Below are positions 1 through 61,780 of a stretch of 64,000 bases of DNA, piece by piece (the stretch's first letter is position 1; every line of letters begins with the position of its first letter). The DNA is from Marsupella aquatica (Eukaryota; Plantae; Marchantiophyta). Made by a program: the position numbers and the translations under genes. The notes under the pieces are model-generated. The model was given only the letters and a program-made list of their open reading frames with translations. It was not told the origin of the DNA and made no database searches. The stretch is from contig OZ316891.1 of NCBI GenBank assembly GCA_973895155.1, positions 16,643,651 to 16,707,650 of the forward strand, in the 5' to 3' direction.

Positions 1-736
1 CTGTCCTTGCCCAAGAAGGTTGGTTGTTGGTGCCACTGGAGTAGGTGCCATGGGAGCGGACGTTGAGCCGTAGACAAGGCCGAGCCAGAGCTAGGTTAGT
101 TGAGGGATTGTGCTTTAGAGAATATGGCGTCAAAATGGTGTCATTGTAAGTCTATTGTCCTGGGGATCTTGAACACCTTGTCAAGGAGGCAAAGGATGGC
201 TTCTCCAAAGCCGATGTACTTTTCCCCATCAAAGAAGAATTTGGTGATTTGTTCGTCCCTGCAATACTTGTTTTTGAACCAAAATCGATGATCTAGTGGT
301 GACAGCCTAGCAAGCGAGTGCGTCGTTCAAAATGCTTCTCAACTTTGTACCTTTGCGGGTTGGTTGTAGCTAGCAAGGCGACAAGATGGCCTTGTATTGA
401 AAGAAACTGGTACCAAAACCGGATAGCTTAGGAGGAACTGAGAGGAACTGAGAGGGCGGGAGGGCGGAGCGAACTCGAAGGTGTGGCTATGGTTGCCTGA
501 CTTCCCTGGACTCACCAACACGCTCACACTACCATTTTGATCATTTTATAGGGCGCTGACTCCTAGCGTGGACCTTGATATCGGAGGCGTTGCAACTTGC
601 TTGGACATTGGTGGTCGGAAGTGCCACAGAGAGGAATCGAATTAGCTGGAGCACTTCACATTTGTGAATGGAGGCCTGCAATAATTGAACTCGGCCTGCA
701 AGGTGAGTAGGTTGCTAAGCGTCACGACTAGAACAG

Positions 737-3178
737 ATGGATCCTTTTAGCGGGGTGGGACCGCGGATGCGAACTGGCTATGGTCGTGGCCCCGGGCGGG
801 GATCATCACTATCGTTGGCTATGGGGTCTTTTCATTGGGATCGATCGTTGGCCCAGGGAGGAGATGGACGGGATCCCTCCGCTCTAGGTGCCAGACAAAT
901 TGAAGAGGAAGAAGGAGGGCAACGGGCTGGGGAGCGTTCTGGTAGCACTAGGTTCTCCCTGCAAGACGTGAGGGGCGGGCCTAAGTCTGCCCCTTTTGAT
1001 CTGTTTGGCACTGCTGACGGTAGCAAAACAACTACAGATAAAGGCAACAGGCCTAGCAACAGAAAGTTTATCCCACGCTCTGGACCTTCATGGGCAGATC
1101 AGATGGACCTAGATATACAAGAGGCTGAGGAAGTGGTGGAACTTGAGCTACAGGCTCATTCCTTGAGACCTAAGTCGCCTGCAAGGGGGCGTGGGGCACT
1201 TGGGAACTTAGCGCCTGGTGATGCTCCGGTACGTAATGCTGCTGGCCCCAAGAGAGGGACGAGGCCCTCCACGATAGATGCACAGGGTTCTCAGAGGGAG
1301 GCTGTAGGCCTTGATCACCAGACGGAGCACAGACCACGACAAAGCAATCGGCAGCCACAACACGTTAATGCAGCCAGAACTCAACATACAAATGAGGATG
1401 ACTTTGCTGGGTTATCTGATGAACTACCAAATACCTGTTTGGAAATGCTACGTAAAATTGCCATCAGCTCCACTGGCGATTGGCCTAACACGCTTCACAC
1501 CAAGATTCAGTGGTCTATAGAGGAGGCTACTCTCTCTATTACAAAACTATACAACTGCACAATGATGTGCTATTTCACTGATCGCCCACCACTACTACCG
1601 GTCTTCAGGGACTGGGCTGAATCGGTTTTTAATCGTGACTTAGGCTGGCCGATAACTCAGATCAAATTTGCTGGTATGAATTTTTATGTGATCACGTTTG
1701 AATTCTAAGAGCATCGAGATGCTGCTTTGGAACTGGCCCCCTTCTTCATGGACCGGAAATTTGTATTTACTTTTCCTTGGGACCCATCGTTTGATGCAAG
1801 TAGTGATTCATACACGAAATTGCCAGTCTGGATCGAGCTACCATTTCGAGCACTAGTACTGGAGGGATGCAGGAAACGAATAGCCGAGTCATTTGGGAAG
1901 GTTCTATACTACATACAGGGTGACAAGCGCAACTCTTTCCCCCATGACAGGGCTTGTATATTGTGGGACACCAGCCGAGAAGTACCACACTGCGTTGGAG
2001 TGGATATTACTGCTGGCATCACGATTTGGCAGCCTGTAGTATTCAAAAATATACCATATCATTGTTTCAAATGCAACCAAAAAGGCCACTTAGCGCGGGA
2101 CTGCAAAGCACTCGAACAGGAGGAGAACCCCACCAAAACCAATGAAACAATCCGGGATCCTACTACAAGCGAGAGGGCAGGAGAAATATTTCAAGAAGCA
2201 AAGACGACGGAGGATATCCTGGCTGGTGGAAGCCACGCGGCCTTCACAAGTCTGAACACGTCTCGTCTGGACACTAGCAATGGTGCAGGAGGAGCTGTCG
2301 ATCACATGTTGCGTGAACAACGACCCAGTGTGCCACATTCAGCCAGCAGGGAGAATTACCAGATTACAACCGCGTCAAGAGAAAGGAGCGTGCTTAGGGA
2401 AGCGGGAGGGACCCGGGGGCCTTTGGACATGGAGCAGAGAGCAAAAGCAGGAAGGAACGCGGGGTCATTGGACAGATCAGACCGGAGAATAAGGAGCGGC
2501 GAAGGGAACACATAGGAGAACTGGGTTCCGTCTCCTTCTGCCAAAAATAGGGTGTCACATGAGGCCACAAGCGCTTATGATCAGGATCAGATTCAAGAGA
2601 ATCTAGGTGGCAATCAGAACACTAATGAGGACTTGAATCCGTTGGCGTGGCCAGCCTTGGTGGTCAGTCTGGAAGCTCCGAGGACTAGGCAATCTGCTAG
2701 GGACTACGGGTCAACTGGTGCTTTGCCAATTGACTCTCTACGGCTGGGTCCAATGAGGGTCAAAGAGCTAACAGCGATCGAGGAGTATGAAGCTGTGCAA
2801 GATGGAAGCGGGGACAAAGAAAATCAATCTTATCAGGGGGGCTCTGATATTGAGATGTCTGAATACGAAGAATACATCACCAAAAGTCAGCTGAAAAAGG
2901 AAAGAGCGAGGAAACTCGAGCTGAGAACTCCTCCATCTGTTAAGAGGAATGACGATACAAGGAAGGACACTAAGAAGGTGAGATCCTTACAATATTCGGG
3001 GGCAGAAATTGCTCGCTCTCCCTATAGAGATCGTTTAAATAGTGAAGATCAAGAACGACGCGAAGGAAGGCAGGTGGAGGAGCAGGAGGATGGAAGTGGA
3101 AGGACAAGGGATGCTGGACGGGGTCTCCCCGAGAATAAACTTTCTCCGGGCTGCTCGAGATTGGCTTCTCTGAACTGA
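737..3178 (+). pseudogene. L1 ORF1 (DUF4283-like region plus CCHC knuckle)
   Basis: ORFs 737-1708, 1727-2515 and 2552-3178 are in one frame, split by TAA at 1706 and TAG at 2513. The LPVWIELP motif and CX2CX4HX4C are typical of plant L1 ORF1. Confidence 0.9.
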
Positions 3179-3214
3179 ACAAAGGAGGGTACGTAGGTAG
3201 GTCCGCAAACGATA

Positions 3215-6200
3215 ATGACAAGTGCTATTCTGTCGTTTGCTTCATGGAATGTATGCGGGTTGTGTGACCCAAATAGGAAACAGATCGTAAAGAATTGGCT
3301 CATCTCACTGAAGATACCACTTACAACACTTGCCTTACAAGAAGTTAAGGCTGACCAGTTTAGATTAGACATAGCCTTAAGAGCTATTTTGCCCAATTAC
3401 CAGAATTTCTCTTCTGCTCCGGATGATGGACGTGGAGGAACGTCTTTACTGCTTCACCCATCGCTTACGGTTATCGAATCAGGGATCATTGACAAGGGGC
3501 GGGCAGTTTGGGTACGAGTGGAGCATCCTGAGGGTAATTTTGGCCTGGTAAGTATTTACGCACCTAATCTGGCCAGGGAGTGGGCGCTGCTCTGGCATGA
3601 CCTGAAGTCCTCGCTACCGCAAGACAATTGGATAATGTGCGGAGACTTCAATATGACAGAAAGAGATACTGATTCTTTGGGTCCTTCCCCTCTCATCCAC
3701 GGGAGGGAGGAGGAATTATGGAGATTCTTGAAAATGCGTTTCGACTTAGTGGACGCAATCAGCATTAGCCAGAAATTTACGGGTGCCAACTTTACGTGGA
3801 GAAGGATCATCAATGGCGGGATGGTGCAATCACGTCTTGATAGATTCTACTTCAGTGAGCAAGGATGGTGGACAGGAAGTGTAGATGAATTACTACATGA
3901 GGGGAGCTTGGCTCTCTCAGACCATGACCCATGTATCATCAGATGCCGGCTTACAGCAGCGGATATTCAAGAGACGCACCGGAAATCAACATACTTTAAA
4001 GCTAATGCTCTCTGAAACTTGAACTCCTGCACAACTACTCTGATGATGATCTCAAAGATTTTGCAACCACTGAGGAACAGGTAAGGATTGTTGAGCATGA
4101 GGATGCCACGCAAAGTAGATGTCTCTCACGTATCAAATGGCTGGGCCAGGGAGATGAGCCATCAAAATTCTACTTTGCCACGCTAAAAACCAGAGAACGA
4201 GAGAGACCATGTCTGAGCTACTGCTAGATGATGGCAGGATAATTACTCAAGAGAGTCTAAAGATGGCTGAGATCGAAAAGCAATTTGGGGCCCTATATGA
4301 GGCGCATGACGACGTGACAAGTAGTCAGTCCCGGGAGGTTCAGGCCGCGCGGAGGAGGTTGTTCTCAAACACACGGAAGGCTCTCCCTGCCACGGATCTC
4401 TCAAAGCTAGAGCAACCACCTACAATGGAGGAGGTGAAGGATACATTATGGTTGTTCCCGACTGATAAATCACCGGGGCCTGACGGATTAACAGCTGAAG
4501 TGTTCAAGAAGTGTTGGGACTTCTTAAACGAGGATCTGTTGAGTATGATTCTCGCGTTCTGGAGGACCGGTGAACTGGCGTGCAACGTGAAGCAGGGGAT
4601 TATCAAGTTAATTCCCAAGAAGGCGGATAAAAGGAGACTGAAGGACTGGAGGCCTCTCAGGATGCTCAACACGACCTACAAGATTATAGCCAAACTCCTA
4701 GCCAGCCGCTTAAAACCGCTGCTAAACCAACTGATCAGCCCCCAGCAATCCGGTTTTATTCTAGGAAGACACATTCTTGAGAACATTTCCATAGCGTGGC
4801 TTACAGCGGACTGGGTAAGAAACAAAAAGGAAAAATCCTTATTCCTCAAGCTCGACTTTGAGAAAGCCTTCGATCGGGTCAACCATATGTACATTTGGGA
4901 GTCCATGCACCTCTTGGGACTCGGGAGTCACTTCATCAGGCTCTCAGGTCACTGGTTACGGGGGCAAGCTCTAAGATTCACATTAATGGCCTCTTTTCTA
5001 AGGACATTTGAATGCTGAGAGGCGTACGTCAAGGCTGTCCACTCTCTCCTCTATTGTTTGTGCTCTCGACCCAACCATTCATGGATTTCTTAGATGGAGA
5101 ACTGGCACAAGGCACCTTGAGAGGAATTCAGATATCGGAGGTGCTGACGATATGCTACAAGTTCTTTGTTGATGACCTCAGCATGTTTATTCCTGCTTCT
5201 CCCAAGGATTTTCTTGGGGCCAGACTAGTTATCGAGTGCTATGAGCTGGCATCGGGGGCCAACTGAATTTGCATAAGTCGACCGTTATTCCCTTGGGACT
5301 CAATGAGATCCCGGAATGGTTGGTTGAGACAGGTTGCACTATTAGCCTGAAAGGGGAAATTCAGAAGTACTTGGGTGCTCCGTTGGGTCGGGGTATACAG
5401 GCCTCTACGCTCCACACCTTCTGTCTCGATCAAATCAAATCCAGGCTCTCTACGTGGGCCACCCGGTTCTTATCATTCACTGGCAAGACCATACTGGTTA
5501 AGCATGTTCTTCAAGCTGTACCCATTTACCATATGATGTTCCTACATTCTTCGAGTGCTCTGGCCAGGAAAATGGTGGCTCTATGCAGTGACTTCCTTTG
5601 GGGTTACAACGCTGCAGGGGGGAGAAAGGTGCCACTGGTGGCCTGGGGAACATTGGCCCGCCCCAAGGTGGATGGGGGGCTAGGCTTCAAGGAATTCAGA
5701 AGGTATTCGGACACACTCCTAGCACAATGGTTCTACCAAGCACTTGATCATCCGGACTCAGACTGGGCTAAACTCTACTACGAGAACTTGAAGATGGCAA
5801 AATGGGGCAAACACACCCAACCAAGCTAAGAGCAAAACTTGAGCAAAAGGCTTTGCACAAACTTTGGCATGAACCTAGCCCACGGCAGCAATACTACATG
5901 AGAGATGTGAACCCCATGAAGAAATATCGAGAACAAGAATACTTATCTAGCACTATCTCAGTACAACTTAGACAACTTATTGCTCAGTATAGACTAAGCT
6001 CACACCACCTTGAAGTAGAACAAGGGAGATGGAAGGATATTGACAGGAAAAAGAGGGTTTGTCAACTATGTGATAGCCCTAGTATAGAGAATGAATATCA
6101 TGTATTCATTGCTTGCAAGTTTTATGAGGGGGTTAGGATGGCATCTCAAATCTTGGTGAAAGATTTGTATGCATTGTTTGGTCTGCCCCCTCAGCAACTT

Positions 6201-7545
6201 GGAAGATATATCTTTGCGGTGGATAGGGAAAGGAGAATAGGTTTGGAAAATCTTTCAGGGCTCTCTAGGTCCATAGTTTCTTTGAGGACATAGTTGTCCT
6301 CTTCTGAGCAATCTCTTTTGGTTGCTCTTTTCTTTGATTGCATTGTACTTTACTTTTTGTGGCAGCTCCTTTGACTTTCATGGTCCCGGAGCTTAATACA
6401 TTACCATTACCATTACCATTAGGAGAAATGGCTATTCCTTCTCTGATTGCCTCCTATTGTGTTACCCTCGCTCCTTCAGCGGCTTGAGCTACACTGGCAG
6501 TCTCTGGAAAGCCTGGGAAGCACTCCGTACTCACTTGTTATTTTCGCCTGCTGGTGCTGCTGTGGCCGCTTGGTGGAGCATTGATGATATTGTCAGGTGT
6601 CTAGAAGGGTTCTAGGATCTTCCAGAAGACATGAAAGGTAGGCTGATCCGGACTTGCGGACGAATGGGTTTGAGAAAGGTTTCTGACCTCAGATGCTGGG
6701 GTGGCAACACTCCGGAATTTGCCCGACACAAGCTCAACAAGATCAGAGGTTTGGACCCGGAATTGGAGGCGCTGTGCATTTCCTTTGTGAGAAGAATCAG
6801 AAGGATCTCGGATGACAAAGAGGCTGGTTCTTCAGCAACATGCTGGATCTGGGCGGACAAAAAGGAGAGAATGAGCAAATTTGCCCTGCCTAATGCTAGA
6901 GCATACCAACTCCTGCGCACGAAAGGTTATGACTTTACTAGGCTCAACAGAATCTGGTCGCTTCATCTCTCTGATCTGGAATGGAGTAAACTTTGGCACT
7001 CACTATGGGCGTCTGATCTCCCCACGAAGTCTCGCACATTTCTCTGGAGAGTGATTGCACAAGGGCTCTTCACTAACATACGGGCTTTGCGGATGGGTAA
7101 GAGTGATGGTACTTGTGGTCTGTGCCGTAATGCTCTTGAGAGTATACCCCACATTTTCTTTACATGCAAGCTTGCTGCCAAAGGTTGGGATTTGGTTGCC
7201 AGGACTTTTCCAGATTTGATCACTTGGCCAGCAGTTGATCTGAGAGTTCTAATGGAGGCATTTCAGGGCCACAGCCTAGCTCGTTCACTGATCGTTTTCA
7301 TGGCGTATCAAGTACTCTGGCACATTTGGCTTGCTCGGAATGACAGTGTATTCAATAATGGCAGAAGCAGATGTTTTGACCTGTTGAAGATATTTACGGA
7401 GGTCATTGATTAACTCCATGGACTGTGTGAGGATTTAGGCCCCTGCAATAGGCGCACACGGTTGCTGTGGATCAAGGAGGAAATTATTAAGGAACGCTTG
7501 AACTGGGCCCCCCGGGCGGAGGCTCCGTTCTCCTCTTCCTCCTGA
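3215..7545 (+). pseudogene. L1 ORF2 (endonuclease-RT-zf), interrupted
   Basis: Pieces 3215-4015, 4209-5018, 5012-5266, 5269-5820 and 6418-7545 carry stops and frameshifts. The EN-RT linker near 4015-4200 looks short, suggesting an internal deletion. Confidence 0.92.
5821..6421 (+). mobile_element. 5'-truncated RTEX/RTE-like LINE nested in L1 ORF2
   Basis: Encodes a C-terminal LINE zinc-finger region (YRLSSHHLEVEQGRW..RVCQLC..ENEYHVFIAC), then a 3' UTR and a (CATTAC)3.8 tail at 6399-6421. L1 ORF2 stops at KWGKHTQ (5820) and resumes in the same frame at IRRNGYS (6418). Confidence 0.8.
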
Positions 7546-7814: not shown

Positions 7815-7998
7815 GGTATGTTAGGTGTCGTGCCACCAGCCTATGCGTGAACTTCCATCATTATTGGCCTAATCATTATGACTAACTAATTTAGTGTTGA
7901 ACATTATGCTAATAACTACAGACTCCTAGTCTACTTTGTACGTACTAAATATGGATTAAGCCGTATTACTGATTACCAGGCGTGCTGGCGGCATCACA
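7815..7998 (-). repeat. LTR-like repeat start (copy 1)
   Basis: Its reverse complement begins TGTGATGCCGCCAGCA and aligns over about 180 bp with 19905-20090 (shared TGGTAATCAGTAAT, CACTAAATTAGTTAG, ATGATTAGGCCAATAATGATG). It truncates the neighbouring copia protease. Confidence 0.75.
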
Positions 7999-10733: not shown

Positions 10734-11389
10734 CTTGTAAGAAACCGTTGGCTCCAGACTAGACATAAATGCGGAACATGAGAGGCACTCAATTAGACGC
10801 TACACCGACAAGATACCCCGAGTGGAGAAACTCCTGAAGGATCCATAGCATATGAGAGTACATGTGAAGAATGAGGGAGAAAGTGCTCTCCCTCTAACCT
10901 ATACCCCCAAAGGGGGCCAAGATGTGTGGGCCTAAACTGATCTTATCCTAATGTAATCTAGGGTAAACTAAGCCTAGTAAGGCCACACTAACTAAGCCAA
11001 GAACCAAAGTCAATTCCTATTTTCATGCCTCCCTTGCCGTTGCTTGCCTCGTTGCCTCGCTTGCCACTGCCTGGGCGCATCTCATGCCTCCTGGCTCCCC
11101 CTCGTTGCCTTCCTGCCTGACACCTCCCCTTCGCTGGCCTTGTCACAGTTGCGACAGCACCTTGGTCTAGGCGTCCTCGCTATCTGGAGGACCATTTAAA
11201 GCGTTGAAAATATGACCTTTATAACTTTTAGGAACCCGATTTACATTTAATATTAACTCATATGATCAATTTCCCTACTATCATATCAAATTTCATTAAA
11301 AGACTCCATTTAGCGTTGATTTTTCTTTTGTGGTCAAAGTTTCAACTAACAATATTATTCTACCCATTTATTCACTCTTAGCAATCTAG

Positions 11390-13745: not shown

Positions 13746-14789
13746 CTCTCTCAACCCATCAAGAAGCTCTCTTTGTTGTTATCCTATCACTTGAATTCTT
13801 GTTTTCATTTGCTTTGTTTTCAACTTTCTTCATGTTGTATCGTTTCCCCTTAGCCGTTATGCCCAACTAACATTGTGATCAATTCTAGAACATGCTCACT
13901 CCATAGCCTTCTCTATAATGCAATTCTTTGATTCTTAGCTGATCATGCACATGTTATAGCCCTATCTTGAGCAATTACTTCTCCTGCACAATGGCCTCCT
14001 GAATGAATGCATGTCTACTGCCAATATCAATCCACATCAAATACTGGAGACACCAACTTCAAAAGAAACACGTTAAACCAACAACAATGCTCAATCGGTC
14101 ATCTTGCTCTTGAGAGATCCCACTCTTAGCTATCTGACGCTGAAGAGATGCAATTCCCTTGGACCATCCTCTTTCTCATTCTCCCTCTTTCTTGTTGACA
14201 ACAACATTTGGTTTACATCGCTCTATCCATTCTCATCCAAATCTCATCATCGAAAGCCGTCGACCAACGAAGGCAAAACAAAAACAATTCCCATGGGACC
14301 AGGGAAAAAAATTCATTGAATCAATCACACCAGCAATCTAACCAACGGTGAAGAACAACATCAAACATTCTTTCGAGGTGTCTATATGTTCATGCACTGC
14401 ACTTCCTGTTGTCCCTTTTGCTACAATCTTGGCTCAAAATGATGACAACGGTGATGGCTCAGTACGTCAATTTCCTTCCACATTGATTTCTCCTCCCACA
14501 ATACCACACCCAATGAACAACAATGCCCCTCCCCCTTCCACAAGTCCCAAAGTCATCTCTAACCTCTGCGCGCATGAACTGACCTTATGAAGTTTGAACC
14601 TTCAATTGCCATGTGTTGCTTCCAGGTAAATTGAAGGAAAAACTCTTAACCCTTCTTATCTTCCCTCCCTTCTTCTTTTGTCCTATTGGTGTTTCTTCTC
14701 CATTTTTAAATCCCTCACCAAACACAAACCACCATCAAGCATTTACAATTCAGAAATAAAGTATTCTTTTCCTCTCCTCCATTATCCGA

Positions 14790-15490
14790 CCCGACAACAA
14801 TGCCTGGACTGCCCCTGCACCTTCCCCGATTGTTGCGTTGCCGCCTTGCTACCTAACCTCCCTCTTACGCCCTCGCTACCTTCTCCTGGCTTGCCATTGC
14901 CTGCTGTGCTTGGACAGCCTCTGCACCTCCCTTGTGCCCTTGCTGCCTTGTCTTGGCTTGCCGTTGCCTCGCTGCGCCTAGACCGGGCGTGCACATCCCT
15001 CGAGCGCCTTGCCACGCCAAGGCTGCCCTTGTTGCCTCCCTCGTGATTGCCAGGGGCGCGCTGCCTCACCGCTACCTAGCCGCACCTGGACCTCCCTTGC
15101 ACCTTCCTTGTGCCCTCGCTGCCTCCCCCGTGGTTGCCAGAGGTGCGTTGCCTCACCGCTGACTGGCCATGCCTAGACCTCCCTTGCACCTTCCTTGCGC
15201 CCCTCGCTGCCTCCCCCTGGCTTGCCGCTGCTTGGCTGCGCCTGAACCGCCCGTGCACCTCCCCCAGGCACCCTACCATGCTGGGGCTGCCCTTATTGCC
15301 TCCCCCACAATTGCCAGGAGCGCGCTGCCTCCCTATGGCTTGCCATTGCCTGGCCCCGCTTGGACCGCCCCTACACCTCCCTTGTGTCCTTGTTGCCTCC
15401 CTCTTGATCGCCACATGTGCACTTGCCCTACCGCAACTACTCTCACTTGCCCTGCCACGGCCGCTTGCTTGCCGCCAAGCTTGCCTTGCT
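14790..15490. repeat. degenerate GC-rich tandem array (units about 60-110 bp)
   Basis: Recurring CCTGGAC(C)TCCCTTGCACCTTCCTTG(T/C)GCCCTCGCTGCCTCC motif. Similar pyrimidine-rich GCCTC motifs occur inside the copia LTR at 11030-11170. Confidence 0.75.
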
Positions 15491-15932
15491 TAGAGTATGG
15501 CGTTGGCCATGGTCGCTCCCCGGTCCAAGCACGCTTGCGTTAAGGGTCGTGGGGTGATTTTTATAGTAGCTGGCCTACTAGATGTTGCCACGTATACAAA
15601 TTTATATTTCATTATTTGTCATCGTATTTGGGGTGTATTTATATGCATGACACAAATACTTGAATACGGAGAAATCCCACAGTGGGGGATAAGACTTTAT
15701 TCATATGTAATGAAAAATTTACAATGACTCGACAAAGTCTAAAAAATGAATCCCCAGAAGGAGTTCTTGACAACAATTAGTTGTCTAAAGAATATAAGTC
15801 TATACTGGCAGCAATCCAGAGTCCGGTGTAATCTATAATATGTCGACTAAAACTATGTCAGACCTATCAATGCTAACTCAATGCCTCACAGGCTATTATG
15901 TGTGTCGTTTAATGTCTACAATGCCTCACATG

Positions 15933-18079
15933 CTAACATCTGACTAGTTTAATGACAGTCCAGAGGACGGTCCTCGTCCATCTCCACCTCCACCTCCTGA
16001 AGGCCCCGCTCCATGAGGACCAAAGTTCAGACTGAAACTGCAAACCATTCATAGTGCAATTTGTCAATGCTTTAATTTTTTCAAAGATAGTATTAATAAC
16101 TGGATTAACAATGGCCAAGTTTGGCAGCTTGGCAATGCCCTTAAATCTCGGGTCAGAACAACTTAAAGCATCCCAATCCATGGACTCAAAAAAACCATCC
16201 AAATCATTGTTTTGTTCCTCTTCAATGAAACTCGTAGGAACATCATCACCCAGTGTACTCAGGCCCTGTTCGCCAGTAGGTGCCACTAGCTCAACGCTCA
16301 CAGCTGTTGTGACAACTTCAATGGCAGCGACCTCCATCACTGGCTCAAATGTTTGCAGAACGAGAGTGGGCTCCAGTTCTATCACAAAAGGCAATGTCGA
16401 CTCTGCAGAATCGGCAGCTGCACTCATCAAGAAACATAAGTTTAGAAACAAGAGTTATATGAACCAAGCAAAACAGACCATAATGAAGTAACTTCTGTAT
16501 TACCTTCGGATGGCAGCACCTTGGCTGCATCCTTCAATTTCTTCGGCAATGGCTCATCCACCACAGATAAAGCAGGCCCAGATAGCTCTTCGCACTTCTC
16601 ACCTTCAATAAGTGCCCTCTTGCCCTTTGTTGCCTCCAAAATAACTGTCTCAGGGTAAGCAGTTCCATCTGTGGCACATCTGAGTGCAGCTCAAACTTTA
16701 GCCTCTGTGCTACGACTGTATCTCTCATACGCCCCCTCGCTTTTGTGCCCTGAGATTTTCATCCCAACCTTTGGTGGAATGCCCTCAGCTCCCATCCGAG
16801 AGATGCAAGTGGTCCGTACTGTTTTATTCGACACACCATCGGTACCGAGGCCAGCCTCCTGATGCAACACTTTCAGACAAGAGCCAAGAGTTTTCTCACC
16901 GAGTCTTGACGTTGAGTACCATGCATGCGTCCGCGGGTGGTCAATGCATTGGTAGAAAAGAAATGATGCACTTACTGGTAGATGGTGTATTAACATTCGC
17001 AATGTATTGACCACATCAAGGTCATAGTTAATCACAACAGGTCTGAAATGCTCCTCCTGATATCGATCCATACTCACTCTATAGTTCTTGCTAAGACGCT
17101 CGTCGTACTTAACAAAATCACCATGGACGTCAGTTGCAAATATAAAATCAGCCTTCATAAGATTATAGAGCTCCTTACCGCCACGGATACAAAACCGATT
17201 CAACAAAAAGAAAACTGCCCTCCTCTGTAGGCCTCGCAAGTGTGACACAGAGGTACTCAAATGAGCCAATATGATAGCCTCATCTGCAAAGGTAATGACA
17301 GAGGCTTTCTTCCTTGGCACATTAGCGCCTGCCTTCTTCGACCGCTCCATTGCTAGCACACAAGCGACAGCCACTGGCTTGAAGAGAGGAGAAGATCGCA
17401 TATTGAACACTTGCTCTTCCTTACCTGTCTCAACCACACGCCTCTCTTGTTTCTTCCTCAAAATACGGTGGAAGGCACGGTAAAGACCCATCAGGGTCTA
17501 TGAAGGATACAACTTACCGTCCTTCTTGCAAACCTGTTCAAAGAACTTCATCAAAAGCATTACACAGTCTCGACCAGCCATTTCCTCAAACGGAGTGGTA
17601 GTCTGCCACCCTTTGAACTCATGAAACTTACTTAGGCGGTTAGACGCCCTCTGATCAACAGCTGCACTTGGGTTACTCCCACCCTCGGCAAGGGTGCGCT
17701 GAAACTGTGCGTCTTCCGGCAGGAACTCGCATGAAGTTCCGTTCGGGAGATTGACTGTCAACTGTTGGGAGATGATGGAAAGTGCAATGACATCAGGGTC
17801 TCCATGTATATCTTGAATGTCAGAATCTAGACAAGATAGTGACTCAGCAGCACAAGAGCTCTCAGCGAATGGATCAGACACAGTTCCACTCGAGGCTACA
17901 GCAGTCGAAGTCATTACTGACATCCCCAAGCTAAACAATGGTGCAGTCTCTCTGGCGACGTCTGCTTCATCAACGACCATGTTGAAACACACGATCAGTT
18001 GGCTGAAATGAAGTCTCATTTCAGCTCTACAGTGACCGACTAGGCGCAGCAGGGAAGAAACAAACGAATGTAGAGACAA
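15933..18079 (-). pseudogene. DUF3504/Crypton tyrosine recombinase, 2 in-frame stops, 1 predicted intron
   Basis: ORFs 17498-18079, 16691-17491 and 16442-16639 share a frame (stops TAG 17498-17500, TGA 16691-16693). Catalytic set: R (FCIRGG), K (SKN), K-x-x-R (NKTVR), H (SGHKS), Y (YERY), with an upstream KKDGKLYP motif. A GT-AG intron at 16503-16418 joins in frame to ORF 15933-16451. Confidence 0.85.
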
Positions 18080-18639
18080 ACGGATTGTTACTCAATGACA
18101 TCGATCTGGAGTGCTTCGAACGCGGTACATCTTGATGGAGAAAGGATTCAACAATGCTGAATACTGCTAAACATTCAAAACAACCTTGGAAACTTTTTGG
18201 AGGCATAATCCAGCGCTTTATTGTTGCGTTGAATAGATGTTAGTGTAAAAACACTACAGACTAACCTACATCTGCAAACACAGCGGCAATGACTGTTAGC
18301 GAGAACATTCACCATTAACATCGATATCAGACAAGCAGACAACATCAATATCAGATAAGCAAAAGACATTAACGACAATGAGAACTAACAGACACAACTC
18401 TTAGGAGTGCAGCTCTAGAAACGCCTGAACTGGCTCGGAGCCAGTCTCCGCAGCCAATTGACGCCGCCTGAACAAGTATGGGGGGCAATGTTTGCTAGAC
18501 CATGATACAGATTACAACAAGCATTACAAGAACATGATACAGATTACAACGAGGATTACAGGTCATTAAAAATGCATGCATTGCCGTAAACACACTAACT
18601 GCACCACCAGCTTGGAATATCCGTAGCCTGTTAGTTGCG

Positions 18640-18855
18640 CCGGAGAAAAGCACTGCGAATGCCGCATGGACGAGAAATGGCAGCGCACGGCAGAGAGAGA
18701 CGCCCGAGAGAAGCACCGCAAATGTAGCATGGACAACAAATGGCAGCGCCAGAGAGAAACGCCCGAGAGAAGCACCGCGACTGTAGCACAAACGATAAAT
18801 GGCACCGCCAGTGAGAAATGCTTGAGAGAAGCACCACGAATGTTGCATGAACAAT
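18640..18855. repeat. about 60-bp tandem repeat x3.5 in the Crypton 5' region
   Basis: GAGAAGCACCGC..TGTAGCA..AAATGGCAGCGCCAG.GAGAAACGCCC unit repeated. Confidence 0.8.
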
Positions 18856-19396
18856 ACACAGGAAAAGCTCCAAAAGGGAAACGCTGTCACAACTCACGAC
18901 TACCGATGGGAAGAACTACAGGAGCGACTAAAAGGGTTCCCCCGGACTGGATCCCCGCAGCCTGACGGCCTCGCCAAAAAGTGGAGCGAGAAGTGACGCA
19001 TTGCCGTCACTCTCGTTCACTATATACTGGAAGCCACCAATACCTTGCTGAAATCTGAGCCGTCCAAAATCGCCTGCCCATTTGATCTTCCGTTAGGCAG
19101 ACCCTAAACCCTAATATCTTCAGCCGTTGGATGTTAAGATCAAAATGCCCCATCCAATCTACACTGTCAAAGTTTGAATGAGTGGCCGAGATTCATTTTG
19201 GCAGTGGCGCGCACAGGAGGCGCGGAGGAATGGACCCGCGCCTTTCAATCCGGGCCATCCAATCTTGTCCAGATGAAAGCGCGTCAATGAAATGCGCTTG
19301 ATCGACGGAGCAGGCCAGCCAGAGGACACGCGTTTCCATCTTGGTCGTCCAAATAGGATGCACAACCGCTTAACGTATATTTATGGTCCCCAATTA

Positions 19397-19481
19397 CTCC
19401 TTAATGGAGTATTGGGGCTTCCGTATGCCTCCCCGCTCCCGTGGCTCGGCATACGGTCGCCCCCAATACTCCATTAAGGAG
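19397..19481. repeat. 85-nt hairpin with perfect 21-bp stem
   Basis: CTCCTTAATGGAGTATTGGGG (19397-19417) is the exact reverse complement of 19461-19481. Inner stem CCGTATGCC (19421-19429) pairs with GGCATACGG (19448-19456). Confidence 0.9.
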
Positions 19482-19904
19482 GAAGGAGGGACCTTAAACA
19501 TATACGCTAAGGCAGCGGTAGCCCCAATCCATGTGCGCTTGGGGCCAGCTTGCGCTTGGGGCCGACTCTCCTTGCCCTTGCATCCCTCCACTGACATCCC
19601 CAGGGTGAGCGCTGCTGCCTTGCCGTGGGCCCTGTAGTGGCTGACTTTTCCAACGTCACCCTTGCCACGTAGTGATGGTTGCCCCCTTGCAAGCGCTTGG
19701 ATCCTACGGTGGCCATTGGTTGCCCTTCGCCACGTCCGGTCCCTTTGGCTACCGAGGTGAGCCCATTCTATGCCATGCCACAGCCAGTAATGACGCCCTT
19801 GCCTATGCCTCAACCAGTGTTAGCCCAGTACTCTACCGCATGGTTGGGCCAATCCGTCACTATCGCACTAACAACCTGGGCCTTAATTTTGGGTTAAAGA
19901 TCTT

Positions 19905-20090
19905 TGTGACGTCACCAGCATGGCTGGTAATCAGTAATATGGCTTAATCCGTATTTAGCACGTACGAAGTAGACATAGGAGTCCGTAGTTATTAGCATAA
20001 CAACACTAAATTAGTTAGACATGATGATTAGGCCAATAATGATGAGAGTTCACGTTCGGGCTGGCGGTGCGGCACTATCACTCATACTGG
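19905..20090 (+). repeat. LTR-like repeat start (copy 2)
   Basis: Starts TGTGACGTCACCAGCA and is an inverted homolog of 7815-7998. Confidence 0.75.
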
Positions 20091-22684
20091 TGTGACAACC
20101 TCAGCAAGGCTGACTTGAGCTATGGTCATCCTTGTCTCTCCTCCGCAAAGTTGAGCTGCAGTGCCGATCATCTTTGTCTCTCAGTCGGGTCTTTGTGGTG
20201 CCATTGCCTTGCTTTTCTTCTCTTCAATACGCTGCCATAGGGCTGAGTTCTACTAAGTAAGTAGGTTCCATCAGTAGTGATTTCCTTTCAATAATTGTCA
20301 AAGTTTGTCAATACTATGTTAAAATGCTAGCTCAACAATTGCCTACCTTTAATGTACAAAATGTGTTTGTAATTGCCAGTGTCCAATCTTAGAGTCATAA
20401 ACTTAAAATTTCCTCCAATTGCACAAATCATTGACTCCGGCCAACTGTATTGTTATTTTGTTCTTCATGAGAAGTCATGGCTCGTCCAAAATTGTCAGCA
20501 CACAGAGGCGAATCACAGGTGAGACACAAATATACAAGTAGACACTGTCACTATTCCAATGCACAGATTCATGAGAAGGCCACTAATGTCCGCATCATTT
20601 ATTAACCTATTCATTAAAAACATATTTTCTTTGGTTCACAAATCAATCCTGAAATGTACACTTTCATGACCCAAAATATACACTTTTTGGTCCCTAAATG
20701 TACACTTTATAAGCCAAATCATATTAATATTATTGGACAAAGACATAACTCGGATAAATAGATTATAAAATAATATACAATTTATTTTCTCCAAACTGAC
20801 AATGAATATGAATTCTTTGTTACTATCTAAGGGACTTAACATGAGTCAAATCTCTAAATTAAGTGTTCTTTACAATGTATATTAGAACAAGTGCCCCTCG
20901 TTCCTTACTATCTACCATACTGTCACGGTTGCAAATCCCTTTATGTTTAGGGAGCTAAAACTTGGTGGTGTTATTCCTAATGAGTATAGTCTCTCGCAAA
21001 ATGTGTCTGAGATTTTCTCTTTACGGATCTAAATAGTCTTGTTCTTCAAATGATTTAGCAAATGAGGTGACAAGTGCATCATCAAATTTGTTCTACAAAT
21101 GATAGCAAGTGAGATGACAAATGCATCATCAAATTCTAAACGTGAATTTAGGGCATAAAACTCACTTCACTCTTTTAGTTAATTAACACCTTGAATAATA
21201 TGAATTTAGGGCGTACACAATGCAGGGCTCCAATATATTTCCGTATAGCCTAATTTGTGTACACAATGCAGGGCTGCAATAGATTTACATATGGCCCAAT
21301 TAACGAATCCTCTTTTAAAAACGTGCTGGATCAGCTGAATGTCACTCACTCCAAAGTTATGGCAATATTGACAATAGTCCTTGAGCAAAGATTGCTTGAT
21401 CCGTAAATACAGTTCAGTTGGACTTATTGCCACATGGGCAATTGACGCATCAGGCCTATTTCCTGGTTCCCACCTGAAACCCAATACCTCTTCCCGGACT
21501 AATATGCGTAGTCCCGGAGAGAACCACAAGATAAACAAAGTACCTGTGAGAGGCCCGCAACAAGTGAAGGTAACTCCTGATATGATAATATCCATGAAAG
21601 TCAATCACCTGTAAGGGCTTGAGCCTCAGAGGAGGACGTTGCATGAATTCCACATTGCAGTATGGGAAGGGACAGCACCGTTGGAACTGAGCTTCTCAAA
21701 AAAGAATTTCAAATGTTTGGTTACCAAACATGACTCTAACTCAATCCACAGTGTAAGACAATGTCTGCAAACACACTATGAGATGCATGCATCATACTAC
21801 CGTTAGTTCAGTGGTACAACATCGATATTTATGCAAGTGAATTTCCATGCTAGTTTCTTTATAAAAAAATTAATAGCTGTAGTCATCGCTATATACTTAC
21901 TAGTAAAACAGCAGAGTGGAGTGACTTAACCTTCCACAGAACAGCCTCTCTAGAGTCTTCCGTTCAATGAGAATGCATGTATCTGAACTGTATAATACTC
22001 ATGCAACATTTTGCTTGCCGTATCACAACATGATCAAATAAAGACGCTGCGGTGAATGCACTTGGATAAGCTTATTTGGAACTAACAGATTTACAGACTT
22101 GGTCCAGTGGAGTTAAGCACCAACCACTCAGAGTCACAAAAATGTCACCTCAAATGAAGATGATGTTGGCCTGCCACATAGTCTTTCGCCTCTCCAACAT
22201 GTACAACTCGTGAGCTTTAGCTACGGTATGCCATTAGCCGGCCTATATGCCTTGATGCCGTCACATTCTCACAGATGGAGTCTGTAGTCGAAGAGAGTTG
22301 GGATGGATACGTGAGCCTTGGCGCACATTTGCGGTCCTGGAAAAATTCTCCTTCTAAATCTTTGCAAACTCCACTGCGACAACATCATCATCGGTATTGG
22401 GCAGTACCAACAAACTTGAAAACTTTTTGGGCATGAATCTCTTTTACTTGGTGAGAGTGAGAAAGTCACTCCATTCTTGTGGTTTTTCTTCTTTCGAGTA
22501 CAAAAGGTATCCTCTCTACAGGGATGGCATCTATGCAATGCTACCTTCGAGGCCTAGTCCGCCTTCCTCCTGAGCTCCTGCTCTGAATATTTATTCCTGA
22601 CTATGTATGCTCAGAGAAGATCTCTGAGGAAATTTTATTGCAGTTACCCCTACCCTTAACGTGGTACATCTGGAAAGACCTGCT

Positions 22685-56665: not shown

Positions 56666-57093
56666 ACTCTTGATCTGAGCATTTTTTTCCTTACACATCA
56701 GCTCGAGCAAAATTTTGTTTGAAAAAAAAAATGGAAAATCTCCACACCAGCCCACGAAAGACAAAAACATCTAAGGATTTCAGTTTTTTTTTAGGATTCC
56801 AACAATAGCTTTGCCCTCACATCAATCTCTCCTCCCTGAACGCGACCTTCTCCACAAAAATTACCCAACATCTAGCAAGGACGGCCCTTGAAATATCGGA
56901 GCAGGCACGAGGAAGGTCGATACAAGGCAAATGGACCATCAAGAATGGCTGTACACGGACCAATATCAGGGAAGTCCCGATCCCATCCCCCAAGATTACA
57001 CAATTTCAAACAAGATACACCAAGGAAAACTTAAGCAATTTCCATTCACTGAGACACTTCCGATTACCAAAGATACAATACTTCGATTGAACA

Positions 57094-60000
57094 ATGACTA
57101 CGATTGAGAAATTACAATTTAAGGCATTAGCCATAGACGGTGAAAATTATTTAACATGGTCACTTGACATTGAGGCCTATCTTGCATCCAAAGACTTGCA
57201 GGACGCAATCCTAACCGATGCAGGCCTCACACTACAACAGAAGGCAAGAGCGCTAATCTTCATTCGACATCACTTGGCCGAGCCACTCAAGACCCAGTAT
57301 CAGAACCAATATAATCATAGAATACTCTGGGAAGATGTGAGATTACGGTTCAACCACATGCGGCTTGTCTCCCTGCCAACGGCCCGCCATGACTGGATCA
57401 ATCTTAGAGTCCAAGACCACAACTCAATAGCGAGCTACAATGGCAAACTATTCCGGATCACCTCACAATTTGCAGTCTGCGGGCACCCCATCAATGACGA
57501 CGAAATGATAGAGCACACCCGTTCAACGTTCAACATAGGAAACTTACTCCTGGCATCACAGTACAGAAATATGGGCTTCACTAAATATTCTGAACTGATC
57601 GCATATATGCTTCTTGCCAAAAAAACACCAATTACTCCTCCTGGAGAATGCCAAATCTCGCCCACCAGGGGCCGCTGCACCCCCACCAAGACCAGAAGCC
57701 AACTTTAATCGCCAGAACGACAGGCCCAAAGGGAGAGGAAATGGAAACTTCAAGGGGAGAAGAGGCACAAACCCCGGTAGGGGTAGATATCAACAAGGCG
57801 GTAGAGGCATCGGCCAACCCAATAGAGAAGACCAAACATTCGGAAACTTTAACAGAAGAGGTGGATACAGAGGAAGAGGAGGCGGACTTAGAGGAAGAGA
57901 CCGAGGGGGGCGCCTCACCAGGGGATATTACAATTGGAACCGAGAAGACAATAACCCCATTGAATGTTTCAGGTGCAGAACAAAGGGACACCTACAAAGA
58001 GACTGTCGGGCACCGGCACACTTGGTCACACTCTACAAGCAGAGCCAGGAACAACCCACCAATAGAGCACAGGGCAACTACATGGAGGCCCTAGACAACA
58101 TTGAGGGCTATAGATTAGACCCAGCAGTACCCGAAGTCCACACCGCCCAACTAGGCTCCACCTCAACACCACCGAACGACCACAGTAACTGCATTGTGGA
58201 CAGCGGAACATCTCACTCAATACGACGAGACAGACATTATTTCCTCCAAATCACACCATCCAACAGATCCATGACAACGATAATAGGACCTAACCACATA
58301 GAGGAAGGCTACGGCCCGGCCAGAGTCAGATTCCCAAAAGGGACTACAATCTACATCGACTCAGCAATTTACGCACCAAGGGCGACAAAGAACCTAATCA
58401 GCTTCAACGATATCCGCGCAAATAAGCTACATGTCCACACTGATACCCACAACAATAGGGAAGTGCTGCAGATACTAGACAACACCAAACCAGGGGGAGG
58501 AGTCCAAGAGATCTTACCAATTTACCCCCTGGCTTATACATCGCCCGGATACACTCTTACCACACACAACTCCCCACTCTTAATTTAACTCAAACCTGGC
58601 ATAATTGCCTTGGTCACCCCGGCACCAATATGTACCATAACATTCTGAAGACCACGGTGGGGATACCCCACGGAGTTCACCCCTCAGCCTTGAACAAACC
58701 CTGCATCGCTTGTTCATAGGTACAGATGGTGACTCGGCCTGCACCATCAAAAACCATACATAAGATCCCACAATTTTTAGAGAGGATACAAGCAGATGTC
58801 TGCGGGCCAATCAAACCACCCTCCGGCCCATTCCGATACTTCATGGTCATTATAGACGCCTCCACCAAATGGTCATAGGTCTCATTGCTCTCCACACGGA
58901 ACCTAGTCTTCACCAAAATATATCTTATCTCACATACTGAAACTCAAACACCAATTCCCAGAGAATCCAATCAAAACCATCAGAGTTGACAACGCGGGGG
59001 AGTTTACCTCAAAAACGTTCGACAACTTTTGTGAGACTACAGGGATAGACACCAAATACTCGGTCCCACATGCCCACTTCCAGAATGGTATCGCCGAATC
59101 GGTGATAAAACGCATACAGATGGTGGCCAGGCCACTGCTAATGCAATCCAACTTACTAGCTTCAACATGGGGCCATGCGGTCCTACACGCTGCCGCCCTC
59201 CTAAGAATAAGGCCATCCTCCTGCAATACCCAGACCCCTCACTTCTTGGCATACGAAATGCCACCGAACATCACCCATCTCCAAACATTTGGATGCCTGG
59301 TCCTGGTCCCAATAGTCGGCCCCAAACGGACCAAAATGGGACCCCAGAGACAACGAGGCATCTACATGGGACTAGACTCATGTTCTATCATCAGGTACTT
59401 GGAACCTACGATAGTAGACATATTTAAAGCAAGGTTCCAAGACTGCCAATTCTTCGAAGATGAATTCCCAACTCTCGCCGAAGACATTGCTAGAAGCGGA
59501 CATGTCAAAGCACAAGAACTACAATGGCTGCCCACAAAACCAATCACTGATGACCACCGGACCAGAGAAGCAGACCAAGGAGTACAAAGGGTCCTCCATT
59601 TATAGCAGATGCTCACGAACTTACCTGACTCTTTCAACGATGCAGCCACAGTCACACGGTCACACACGGAGGCAGCAAATATACCCGCAAGAATTTCACG
59701 GACAGCCCCACAGGCAATGGTAGCCGCACCAAAGGCAAAATGGGGCCGACCTCTAGGCTCCAAGGATATGTACCCGCAACCACCACGCAGCGCATCACCA
59801 GCACCCACGGCAACCCCTGCACGAAGATCACCCCCTACAAGGGATACAACAAACGAGGAAATAACAATCAGCTACATACACACCAGACAGATGATGCAGC
59901 GAAATACAACACAAATCAATGACCACTTTGCATTCCATATCTCTGAGGAGATAACCAACAAAACCCCCGACCCCATTACAGTAGCAAAGGCCCAATCTCG

Positions 60001-61780
60001 ACCAGACTGGCATCAATGGGAGCTGGCCATAAACTCCGAATTAGACTCCCTGATAAAACAAAACATCTTTGGACCAGTAATCCCTGCCCCCGCAGGGACA
60101 CACCTTATGGGATATAAGTTCACATTTTTGAGGAAACAAAATGCAAAGGGAGAGGTAATCAGATACAAAGCTTGCTTGGTAGCGAAGGGCTACACCCAAA
60201 TTCCCGGCCGGGACTTTGACCAAACATACTCCCTGGTGATGGATTCCATAACATACCGGTACCTCATTGCGTTTACACTCTTGCACAAGCTCGTCATGTA
60301 CACGCTAGACGTGATAACAGCCTGCCTGTATGGTATCCTAGATACCACAATATACATGAAGGCACCCCTGGAACTGATCAAAAGAATAAGGTTCCACATT
60401 GAGGGGGAGAAGAATGGTACCACAGACTGCGATCTACAACCGGGCCTAACCCAAACCGGCCCTACAAGCGATTTGGACAAAATGACGAGCAAGCTCGGAC
60501 CTACAGTACCGACACCAAAGGATATGCTTCACACATTCGACCTCGGGAAACGAACAGTCCTCCTACCGAACACCTCTGCTACACAGCCAAAACGAGTCAA
60601 AAGAGAACTCGCAGTCCAAGTCCTACGCTCAATGTATGGATTAAAATAGAGCGGACACACCTGGTACAAACAATTCAAAGCTAAAATGCTCGCACTGAAC
60701 TTCAATACTGACAACATTGCCCCATGTTTGTTCCTCAAATAGGAGGCAGATGAATTTGTTATCATCGCAATTTATGTAGATGACATAAACATCTTTGGCA
60801 CAGCAACGATAATGCAGAAGACAATCAAAATCGTGAAGAAGACATTCAAGATAAGGGACATCGGGAAGCCTAGCTATTGCCTGGGATTACAATTCAACTA
60901 CTTGCAGCAGGGAATCCTGATCAACCAATCAACTTATACCGAAAAGGCGCTACGAAAATTCAACATGGCATCCGCCCACCCGGTCAGCACCCCCATGGAC
61001 CTAAGATCCTCAGACCCCACAAGGGACACCTTTAAAAAATGGGCAGAGACAGAGGAGGTTCTTGGCCCCAAGAAGCCATACCTCTCAGCCATCGGGGCCC
61101 TGATGTACCTAGCGACATAGTCACGCCCCGACATTGCTTTTGCCGTCAATCTACTTGCTTGTCATAGCTCCAACCCCACAATCCGACATTGGAATGGAGT
61201 AAAAAGGGTATTCCGATACCTGCGTGGCACAACGGACATGGGGCTATTCTTCCCCAAGAACTCAGAAAACATGCTGACCGGCTACGCGGACGCGGGCTAC
61301 CTCTCAGACCCAGACAATGCAAAATCCCAAATAGGATACGTCTTCCTACAAGGTGGCATGGCGATCTCTTGGAAAAGCAGCAAACAATCACTCACAGCAA
61401 CCTCCTCAAATCATGCCAAGATAATAGCACTTTACGAAGCCACCAGGGAAAGCATCTGGCTGAGAAACCTGATAAACCACATACACCTGCACACAGGCAG
61501 AGCGTAGCTAAAGAAACCAACAACTATATACGAAGACAATCGACCCTACGTGGAGCAGATAGTCCAGGGATTCATTAAAGGGGATAGAATCAAACACATA
61601 GCACCCAAATTCTTTTTCACTCACGGACAGCATGGCGAACAGGTCCAAGTACAATGGATTCCAAGTAAAGACAACCGCGCGGACTTGTTCACTAAACCAC
61701 TCCCACCAGCACTACACCGCAAACATGCATACGGGATAGGACTGCGAAGTATGGCATCACTTTTACAAGGAAAAGAATGA
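57094..61780 (+). pseudogene. copia gag-pol polyprotein, multiple stops and frameshifts
   Basis: gag DGENYLTWSLD, knuckle CFRCRTKGHLQRDC, protease IVDSGTSHSI, integrase (DVCGP, RVDNAGEF, QNGIAE), RT (YKACLVAKGY, YVDD at about 60773) and RNase H (GYADA, YEDN, ADLFTKPL). Confidence 0.95.

Follow-up and report, generated by a model that had tools for sequence, protein, structure and literature searches.

We analysed a 64,000-nucleotide window of the genome of the liverwort Marsupella aquatica (GenBank assembly GCA_973895155.1, contig OZ316891.1, positions 16,643,651 to 16,707,650 of the forward strand), which contains on its minus strand a gene for a tyrosine recombinase related to those of Crypton transposons. 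The recombinase gene runs from 18019 to 15933 of the window and consists of two exons with 666 codons and a stop, 2001 nt when spliced, in which an in-frame TAG and an in-frame TGA are the sole defects. It occupies four consecutive stop-to-stop frames of the minus strand (17498-18091, 16691-17497, 16442-16690 and 15933-16454). Reading the TAG and TGA as X turns exon 1 (16504-18019, minus strand, 505 codons) into a single 505-residue protein, P0001, that extends from the ATG at 18019 to 16504; a second candidate ATG is found at 17980. The protein begins with a disordered amino-terminus, which is followed by an N-terminal core-binding-type helical domain and the catalytic domain. The TAG is codon 174 (17498-17500), where relatives P0002, P0004, P0008 and P0010 have a glutamine, and the TGA is codon 443 (16691-16693), where P0002-P0005, P0008 and P0009 have an arginine. 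Given these residues, it is reasonable to read both stops as C-to-T changes, in CAG and CGA respectively. An initial annotation of the window, made from the letters alone, had seen only these two nonsense changes and had explained them in the same way.

The exons are separated by a predicted 86-nt GT..AG intron on the minus strand (16418-16503), with the junctions GAAG/GTAATA at 16504/16503 and GTGCAG/CTGCC at 16418/16417. The intron had already been proposed in the initial annotation, and its predicted removal does join the frames into the 666 codons and stop. The bigger indels of other copies of the gene (54 nt, 71 nt, and 65 nt replaced by 88) lie inside this predicted intron, which would be spliced out of the transcript. 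Predicted exon 2 (15933-16417, minus strand) encodes an acidic carboxy-terminal tail of 161 codons, with its stop at 15933-15935, and the chance of a frame staying open for this length is approximately 1.4e-4 at the local composition. Among the listed differences between copies, 11 of 18 in exon 2 (p 0.014) and 7 of 11 in exon 1 fall at third codon positions, or 18 of 29 for both exons together (p 0.0014). This third-position bias points to past selection at the protein level.

The catalytic residues are spread over 16718-17185 of the minus strand. Alignments with relatives identified the complete set, comprising R279 (17183-17185), E283 (17171-17173), K311 (17087-17089), K399-x-x-R402 (16823-16825 and 16814-16816), H425 (16745-16747) and Y434 (16718-16720), and so bore out the R-K-(K)xxR-H-Y reading made at the outset. 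An AlphaFold2 model built from 31 sequences had a mean predicted local distance difference test score of 73.8, with values above 90 for most of residues 120-400. The top matches to this model in Foldseek were Cre-DNA complexes (E 1.7e-7, template modelling score by target 0.62-0.66, approximately 350 columns), and further matches were to the Tn1549 integrase, XerA/XerH, lambda integrase and human QRICH1 (9hjt_H). A sequence search of the PDB with a profile of the plant proteins returned no match; only the fold search did. Cre of phage P1 (PDB 1ma7, 1crx) is the best structural match over both domains and shares the order R, E, K, R, H, Y. It differs in sequence, at 12-14% identity, in having a histidine at the position of K399, and in its substrate, a 34-bp lox site. 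The fold is clear in the model, and indicates that the encoded protein is a two-domain, Cre-like tyrosine recombinase with ordered catalytic residues and a lysine in place of the first histidine.

Assignment to a family depended on comparisons of profiles. When the read-through protein was scanned against Pfam, as had been suggested, both expected families were matched, although weakly and under the curated cut-offs: Phage_integrase at E 3.9e-4 (20.7 bits against 27.1) and DUF3504 at E 0.041 (14.4 bits against 29.7). A HMMER profile of 7 plant relatives searched against 1.84 billion representative sequences retrieved 1633 proteins at E<=1e-3, of which 372 reached E<=1e-10 and 67 reached E<=1e-30. 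Within 50 long hits scanned with Pfam, 17 exceeded the DUF3504 cut-off, most of them also containing QRICH1 and Phage_integrase, and the proteins with this combination scored between 1e-18 and 1e-22 with the plant profile. The two of these 17 that were looked up by name belong to Branchiostoma and a fish. When 25 plant proteins were combined into a profile, it aligned to one of 15 animal-type DUF3504 proteins with a probability of 100 and E 3.1e-50 over 346 columns that cover both domains, and in this hhalign comparison the plant SNKTVRTT motif was paired with TNHSLRAT, and GHKS..Y with GHRS..Y. In the ESM Atlas, P0003, a relative from Calypogeia, has as its neighbours clusters with DUF3504/Phage_integrase from molluscs, cnidarians and chordates. 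At the level of sequence the protein is thus shown to be a Crypton/DUF3504-type recombinase, homologous to the animal-type DUF3504 recombinases over both domains, and the DUF3504 label that it first received is upheld by the profile alignment with the DUF3504/QRICH1 proteins. A word-index search with the 25-sequence alignment found only 6 proteins, all already known, and a search for longer fused forms found none, which is weak evidence.

Names were looked up for 30 of the 1633 HMMER hits. Every named hit among the 27 of these with E below 1e-28 comes from a non-seed land plant: the liverworts Calypogeia fissa (several), Marchantia polymorpha, M. paleacea and Riccia sorocarpa (three), the moss Ceratodon purpureus, the lycophytes Selaginella moellendorffii and Diphasiastrum complanatum, and the ferns Adiantum capillus-veneris and A. 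nelumboides (many). The named hits of the 30 looked up include no seed plant. Scans of metagenome contigs with A1 and P0156 as queries found no locus. A quick maximum-likelihood tree was built from 41 rows, of which 25 are plant and 16 animal-type (two named, the others labelled by their Pfam domains); fungal, oomycete and diatom (stramenopile) Cryptons and the recombinases of DIRS/Ngaro elements lie outside its sampling. All 25 plant rows fall on one side of a branch with a support of 100 in the Shimodaira-Hasegawa-like approximate likelihood ratio test (SH-aLRT), apart from the 16 animal-type rows, and the plant part contains taxon-specific subclades. Because the plant rows are arranged in this way, the tree favours an ancient plant lineage over a horizontally acquired one, two origins between which the initial annotation had not chosen. 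The window protein groups with P0002 inside a starred clade, which holds Calypogeia proteins, and the two are 79% identical (84% over the 398 tree columns). P0002 has an uninterrupted frame of 464 amino acids with a cysteine in place of the catalytic R402, and because of this substitution the nearest relative is probably also inactive. The full catalytic set is kept in 10 of the 25 plant relatives.

To assess copies of the gene we aligned Logan contigs from five sequencing runs (X1-X5), belonging to three studies, to the locus. The sequences on either side, 15000-15536 and 19509-19842, have the coverage of single, identical contigs (124 in X1 and 10-16 in X2). The summed depth over 15537-18340, which is not equivalent to a copy number, is 2-20 times that of these flanks in X1-X3, with its peak over the catalytic domain. 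In X1, 411 contigs aligned, and the 84 at 99% identity or more are possibly the locus itself; the others comprise 58 at 95-99%, 139 at 90-95% and 130 under 90%. The differences between copies are mostly transitions, with indels of 1 nt or 4 nt in the coding part of some copies, and diverged copies are present in runs of all three studies. As many copies have diverged by 5-15% or more and some are frameshifted, this is an old, decayed repeat family and not a single-copy syntenic gene, the finding that the initial annotation had named as arguing against a transposon. Its description of the element as fairly recently active found no support: most copies are diverged to this extent, some carry frameshifts, and we saw no sign of recent activity. 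The window copy is among the better preserved and useful for defining the family, but is dead. Taken together, 15933-18019 of the minus strand is a two-exon, two-stop, many-copy gene for a Cre-like Crypton/DUF3504 recombinase, and we regard a dead DNA transposon copy as its most likely explanation.

Tyrosine recombinases are also found in eukaryotic mobile elements of the DIRS1/Ngaro type, which combine them with reverse transcriptase (RT)/RNase H and long terminal or split repeats, and the gene could be the recombinase part of such a retrotransposon whose RT part was lost or lies elsewhere. We give this possibility hardly any credence. No RT/RNase H and no such repeats are present in the element at the window locus, and between 7.4 and 57 kb of the window no open reading frame (ORF) of at least 110 amino acids gave an RT hit, in line with the earlier statement that neither RT nor gag stands beside the gene. 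The nearest RT belongs to a long interspersed nuclear element (LINE) at 719-7410, on the opposite strand to the gene; there is thus no RT within approximately 8 kb of the gene, nor any on its own strand. An RT domain occurs in one of the 50 long relatives, P0051, where RVT_1 follows a recombinase fragment, and further down the Atlas list, at rank 13, come clusters of DIRS type (ALOG with Phage_integrase); both would fit a retrotransposon origin. The other 49 relatives are without RT, which speaks against this origin. The RT stretch of P0051 does not match the LINE of the window, and judging by its motifs it looks as if an adjacent Ty3/gypsy element had been fused into the model. P0051 and Adiantum P0012, in which a recombinase fragment is joined to pentatricopeptide (PPR) repeats, are gene models with foreign domains and probably neighbouring genes that were merged. 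The recombinases of DIRS and Ngaro elements do not match DUF3504, as stated in the available text of the Crypton survey of Kojima and Jurka (2011, PMC3212892), whereas the alignment between the plant clade and DUF3504 proteins reaches E 3e-50. The LINE is of plant type and has ORFs with DUF4283, zf-CCHC, Exo_endo_phos, RVT_1 and zf-RVT on the plus strand, broken by stops. A Ty1/copia element lies at 57091-61504, also on the plus strand, with Retrotran_gag_2, Pol_BBD, rve/SH3_retrovirus and RVT_2 in several frames. The two elements agree with the plant-like genome that had been deduced from the letters.

The limits of the element proved different from those first proposed. According to the initial annotation the element is exactly 15590-19379, recently active, and bounded by 7-bp ACGTATA direct repeats that would serve as the recombination substrate, an account that now appears very improbable. 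The repeats are present on the plus strand at both sites (15590-15596 and 19373-19379), a cluster of loose contig ends at 15585 is only five bases from 15590, and an inverted repeat of 16/17 (15616-15631 with 19349-19365) sits just inside both ends. Terminal direct repeats of 4-6 bp are moreover described for fungal and oomycete Cryptons in the parts of the survey available (PMC3212892). However, the two non-coding end regions have 56 distinct 7-mers in common, against 46 in shuffles, so that a word such as ACGTATA is expected at both ends by chance, and the inverted repeat is matched by 3% of shuffles. On the left, the depth rises at 15537 and not at 15590 (from 124 to 430-1590 in X1, with X2 and X4 alike), and contigs of other copies run unbroken over 15538-15608 in all four runs examined there; past 15585 or 15591, where some contigs cease to align, their sequence is still recognisably related. 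On the right, the repeat lies inside the first arm of a high-copy palindrome running to 19505. No contig in X1-X5 joins 15589 to 19380, and the sole end-to-end joint is in one gene-less X5 contig, from 15652 to 19369. The divergence of most copies likewise argues against the recent activity in this account. Terminal direct repeats of the CryptonF/S type are therefore not supported at the window locus, and what remains of the proposal is the presence of the two ACGTATA words, which other copies cross on the left. The boundaries of paralogous copies do not match 15590-19379, the very observation that the initial annotation had set against its own limits.

The part of the repeated unit that lies 3' of the gene, 15537-15932 on the minus strand, is non-coding, and its modules, 15538-15608 and 15585-15652, are found in other surroundings too. 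Loose contig ends cluster on this side at 15538/15540, 15585 and 15652, and a separate class of contigs has only 15585-15652, with flanks that are mutually conserved (agreement 0.9) and unlike the window. Since some alternative flanks are themselves conserved and copies have no pair of termini in common, the left end may be a mosaic of repeats. Upstream of the gene, 18020-18422 on the minus strand is shared with at least one other copy, approximately 90% alike, and a 548-nt contig found in X1, X2 and X3 reads 17907-18422, then 22 other letters, then 19464 onward. The adjoining segment 18423-19368 is at locus depth only (11.4 in X2 and approximately 105 in X3), which matches the unique flanks. 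Tandem Repeats Finder reported three arrays upstream of the gene: 59 bp x3.6 at 18638-18854 and 32 bp x2 at 18497-18560, both within this locus-depth segment, and 24 bp x2.2 at 18317-18369, in the shared upstream region. TTAA at both edges of the repeat (15540 and 19370) was considered as a piggyBac-like target duplication and rejected, the accompanying inverted repeat being only 8-9 bp and imperfect.

The palindrome on the right is a near-perfect structure of 143 nt (19369-19511), a high-copy repeat and a candidate end or recombination site. Its arms of 42 nt are 86% complementary, and the folded DNA has an energy of -47.1 kcal/mol (z -11.6). Its depth in X1 is 1200 against approximately 120 in the flanks, and in 13 contigs its copies diverge after 19505 into unlike flanks. 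At the window locus it lies approximately 1 kb upstream of the recombinase gene. It is tied to the recombinase body in three contexts: at the window locus, in the copy that passes from 18422 to 19464 (X1-X3), and in the gene-less X5 contig, where the 3' end module 15585-15652 is fused to 19369 onward. This linkage suggests that the palindrome is part of the element, where it would serve as an end or as a site of recombination. Two models fit: the palindrome may be the end and recombination site of the element, with gene-less derivatives, or the recombinase element may integrate preferentially into a palindromic miniature inverted-repeat transposable element (MITE). The recombinase block 15653-19368 may, for instance, have been inserted into a 205-bp MITE made of 15585-15652 and 19369-19505. 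Because the second gene-bearing copy also abuts the palindrome, palindrome and recombinase are linked under either model. An inverted match of 14/15 between 15537-15551 and 19360-19374 was equalled in 3.6% of shuffles, in one of four tests, and is not relied on. An Rfam search of 14000-21000 found no match.

With the palindrome included, the repeat forms an AT-richer block of approximately 3.9-4.0 kb, from about 15537/15585 to 19505/19511, that interrupts a GC-rich, C-skewed sequence. The GC content is 0.46 inside the block, 0.65 in the left flank (14790-15536) and 0.60 in the right flank (19512-19873). Both flanks are C-skewed and at single-copy depth, and the left contains an 87-bp tandem unit at 15024-15217. 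They share 21 8-mers, more than the left flank shares with 285 of 287 other segments of the window. The GC-rich flanks of the initial annotation are confirmed, and they share motifs, but their single-copy depth and the 87-bp tandem array on the left do not suit its comparison with long terminal repeats. Two segments at approximately 10800-11360 share 29 8-mers with the left flank, the most in the window, and may be another piece of this GC-rich sequence type. A short repeat at 19843-20075 recurs at 7825-7998 in the opposite orientation (84.6% over 175 bp); its summed depth in X1 is 5498, with loose ends at 19897 and 19905.

Several observations weigh against a dead transposon copy at this locus. 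No pair of termini is common to the copies, whose loose ends lie at 15538/40, 15585, 15652, 18422, 19369 and 19505; the left end shows no similarity to the palindrome arms beyond chance (p 0.25-0.8); and neither an empty site nor an insertion polymorphism was seen in the contigs of the five runs. Exon 2 matched the carboxy-termini of relatives P0003 and P0007 only in a DW(D/E)xL scrap at E 3.7. DUF3504 was detected at E <= 0.01 in just 3 of the 25 plant relatives (best 2e-7), with the window protein and the other 22 without it. In the active site, the canonical histidine of the HxxR motif of animal-type proteins is replaced by K399, a column in which 16 of the 25 plant rows have lysine and 3 arginine. 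Type IB topoisomerases have a lysine at the equivalent position, and by this analogy the substitution need not inactivate the enzyme. Finally, some members of the family are host-gene-like. The Selaginella/Diphasiastrum clade has lost nearly all catalytic residues, and the Marchantia polymorpha and M. paleacea proteins form one 90% cluster.

These last two cases raise the question of whether the window copy is a decayed duplicate from a domesticated, non-mobile, Crypton-derived family of host genes that spread by ordinary duplication. The Selaginella loci have several annotated isoforms and no catalytic residues, M. paleacea has a protein nearly identical to that of Marchantia Mp5g04240, no termini or empty sites are proven, and the third-position bias would suit genes that were once under selection. 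Nevertheless, no catalytic residue is missing from the window copy or from 10 of 25 relatives, the copies are numerous and diverged, with flanks that differ and with stops and frameshifts among them, the gene stands within an AT-richer block that interrupts GC-rich sequence, and several paralogs lie on different chromosomes in both Adiantum and Calypogeia. A domesticated gene would be single-copy, conserved and intact, with residues lost; the window copy has them, is multi-copy and contains two stops. We consider this alternative unlikely, and continue to favour a dead transposon copy. In animals, the domesticated DUF3504 genes ZMYM2-4, QRICH1, KCTD1, KIAA1958 and WOC share the fold and ancestry of the window protein, QRICH1 being among its structural matches, but differ from this multi-copy pseudogene with its catalytic residues retained. 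It is the lycophyte relatives that have likewise lost these residues. Their clade (P0044, P0048, P0065 and P0089) has a long stem branch, several annotated isoforms, and lacks R279, K311, R402, H425 and Y434; its sequences suggest a plant equivalent of the inactive DUF3504 genes of animals. M. polymorpha P0018/P0158 (MARPO_0141s0031 / Mp5g04240) and M. paleacea P0159 are proteins of approximately 600 amino acids separated by a tree distance of 0.037. H425 is replaced by threonine in these Marchantia proteins, and the gene is a candidate for a domesticated recombinase. On sequence evidence the family thus seems to have both transposon-like and host-gene-like members.

Cryptons are catalogued from fungi, animals, oomycetes and a diatom in the text of Kojima and Jurka available here (2011, PMC3212892), and the accessible portions of plant transposon reviews mention them only as a rare class (PMC11630846). 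We found no published description of land-plant Cryptons, although Repbase entries and supplementary tables of transposable elements could hold some; the initial annotation had similarly noted that they are not a recognised group in land plants. Among the closest systems is CryptonA of animals, in which, as here, the sole gene encodes a two-domain DUF3504-related tyrosine recombinase with neither RT nor a C-terminal GCR1_C domain, and the copy number is low to moderate. A tyrosine recombinase as the only enzyme, with no RT/RNase H, is a defining feature of Cryptons and is what we find at the window locus. The ends are also hard to define in both, no terminal repeats having been found for animal Cryptons according to the sections of the survey at hand (PMC3212892). 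The same sections separate CryptonA, with a DUF3504 match at E <= 8e-12, from DIRS/Ngaro, with no match; the window ORF at E 0.041 falls short of this value, and its homology to DUF3504 recombinases does extend over both domains. The plant family differs from CryptonA in its land-plant host, in the lysine for the HxxR histidine across the plant clade, in the 22 of 25 proteins that have no Pfam DUF3504 match at E <= 0.01, and in its separate, well-supported branch relative to the 16 animal-type proteins. Non-autonomous derivatives made of two ends are described for CryptonI in the portion of the survey available (PMC3212892), and are comparable with the gene-less contig that joins 15652 to 19369.

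Glomeromycota live in bryophyte thalli, which brings in a further comparison. The Glomhoppers, reported in 2026, are DUF3504-encoding CryptonA elements of Glomeromycota, and the accessible part of the report calls DUF3504 widespread in Opisthokonta (PMC13465315). As far as that text goes, they resemble the family studied here in having a DUF3504-related recombinase that retains its catalytic residues, many copies, truncated or with introns, in regions rich in repeats, and transposition for which there is no direct proof. They differ in their fungal hosts, and Glomhopper sequences stand outside the present tree.

By analogy with Cryptons, the element would have moved through excision to a circle made by the recombinase, followed by re-integration. 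This circle mechanism was proposed by Goodwin et al. in 2003, as quoted in the survey text available to us (PMC3212892), and both mobility and the use of a circle would apply here on that analogy. The window copy is a pseudogene with putative ends and belongs to a multi-copy, Crypton-like family of recombinases, related to CryptonA, in non-seed land plants. A more far-reaching proposal is that an ancient land-plant Crypton lineage has a lysine-for-histidine active site, uses the palindrome as a crossover site on one side, has abundant gene-less derivatives mobilised in trans, and was domesticated at least twice, in the lycophyte genes and in Mp5g04240. In this combined form we offer it tentatively, as rather more doubtful than not. 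A recombinase-only transposon lineage common to liverworts, mosses, lycophytes and ferns would in itself close a gap in the classification of plant transposable elements and would account for 'hypothetical proteins' left unannotated in chromosome-scale assemblies. It would also point to plant genes domesticated from recombinases, in parallel to ZMYM and QRICH1 in animals.

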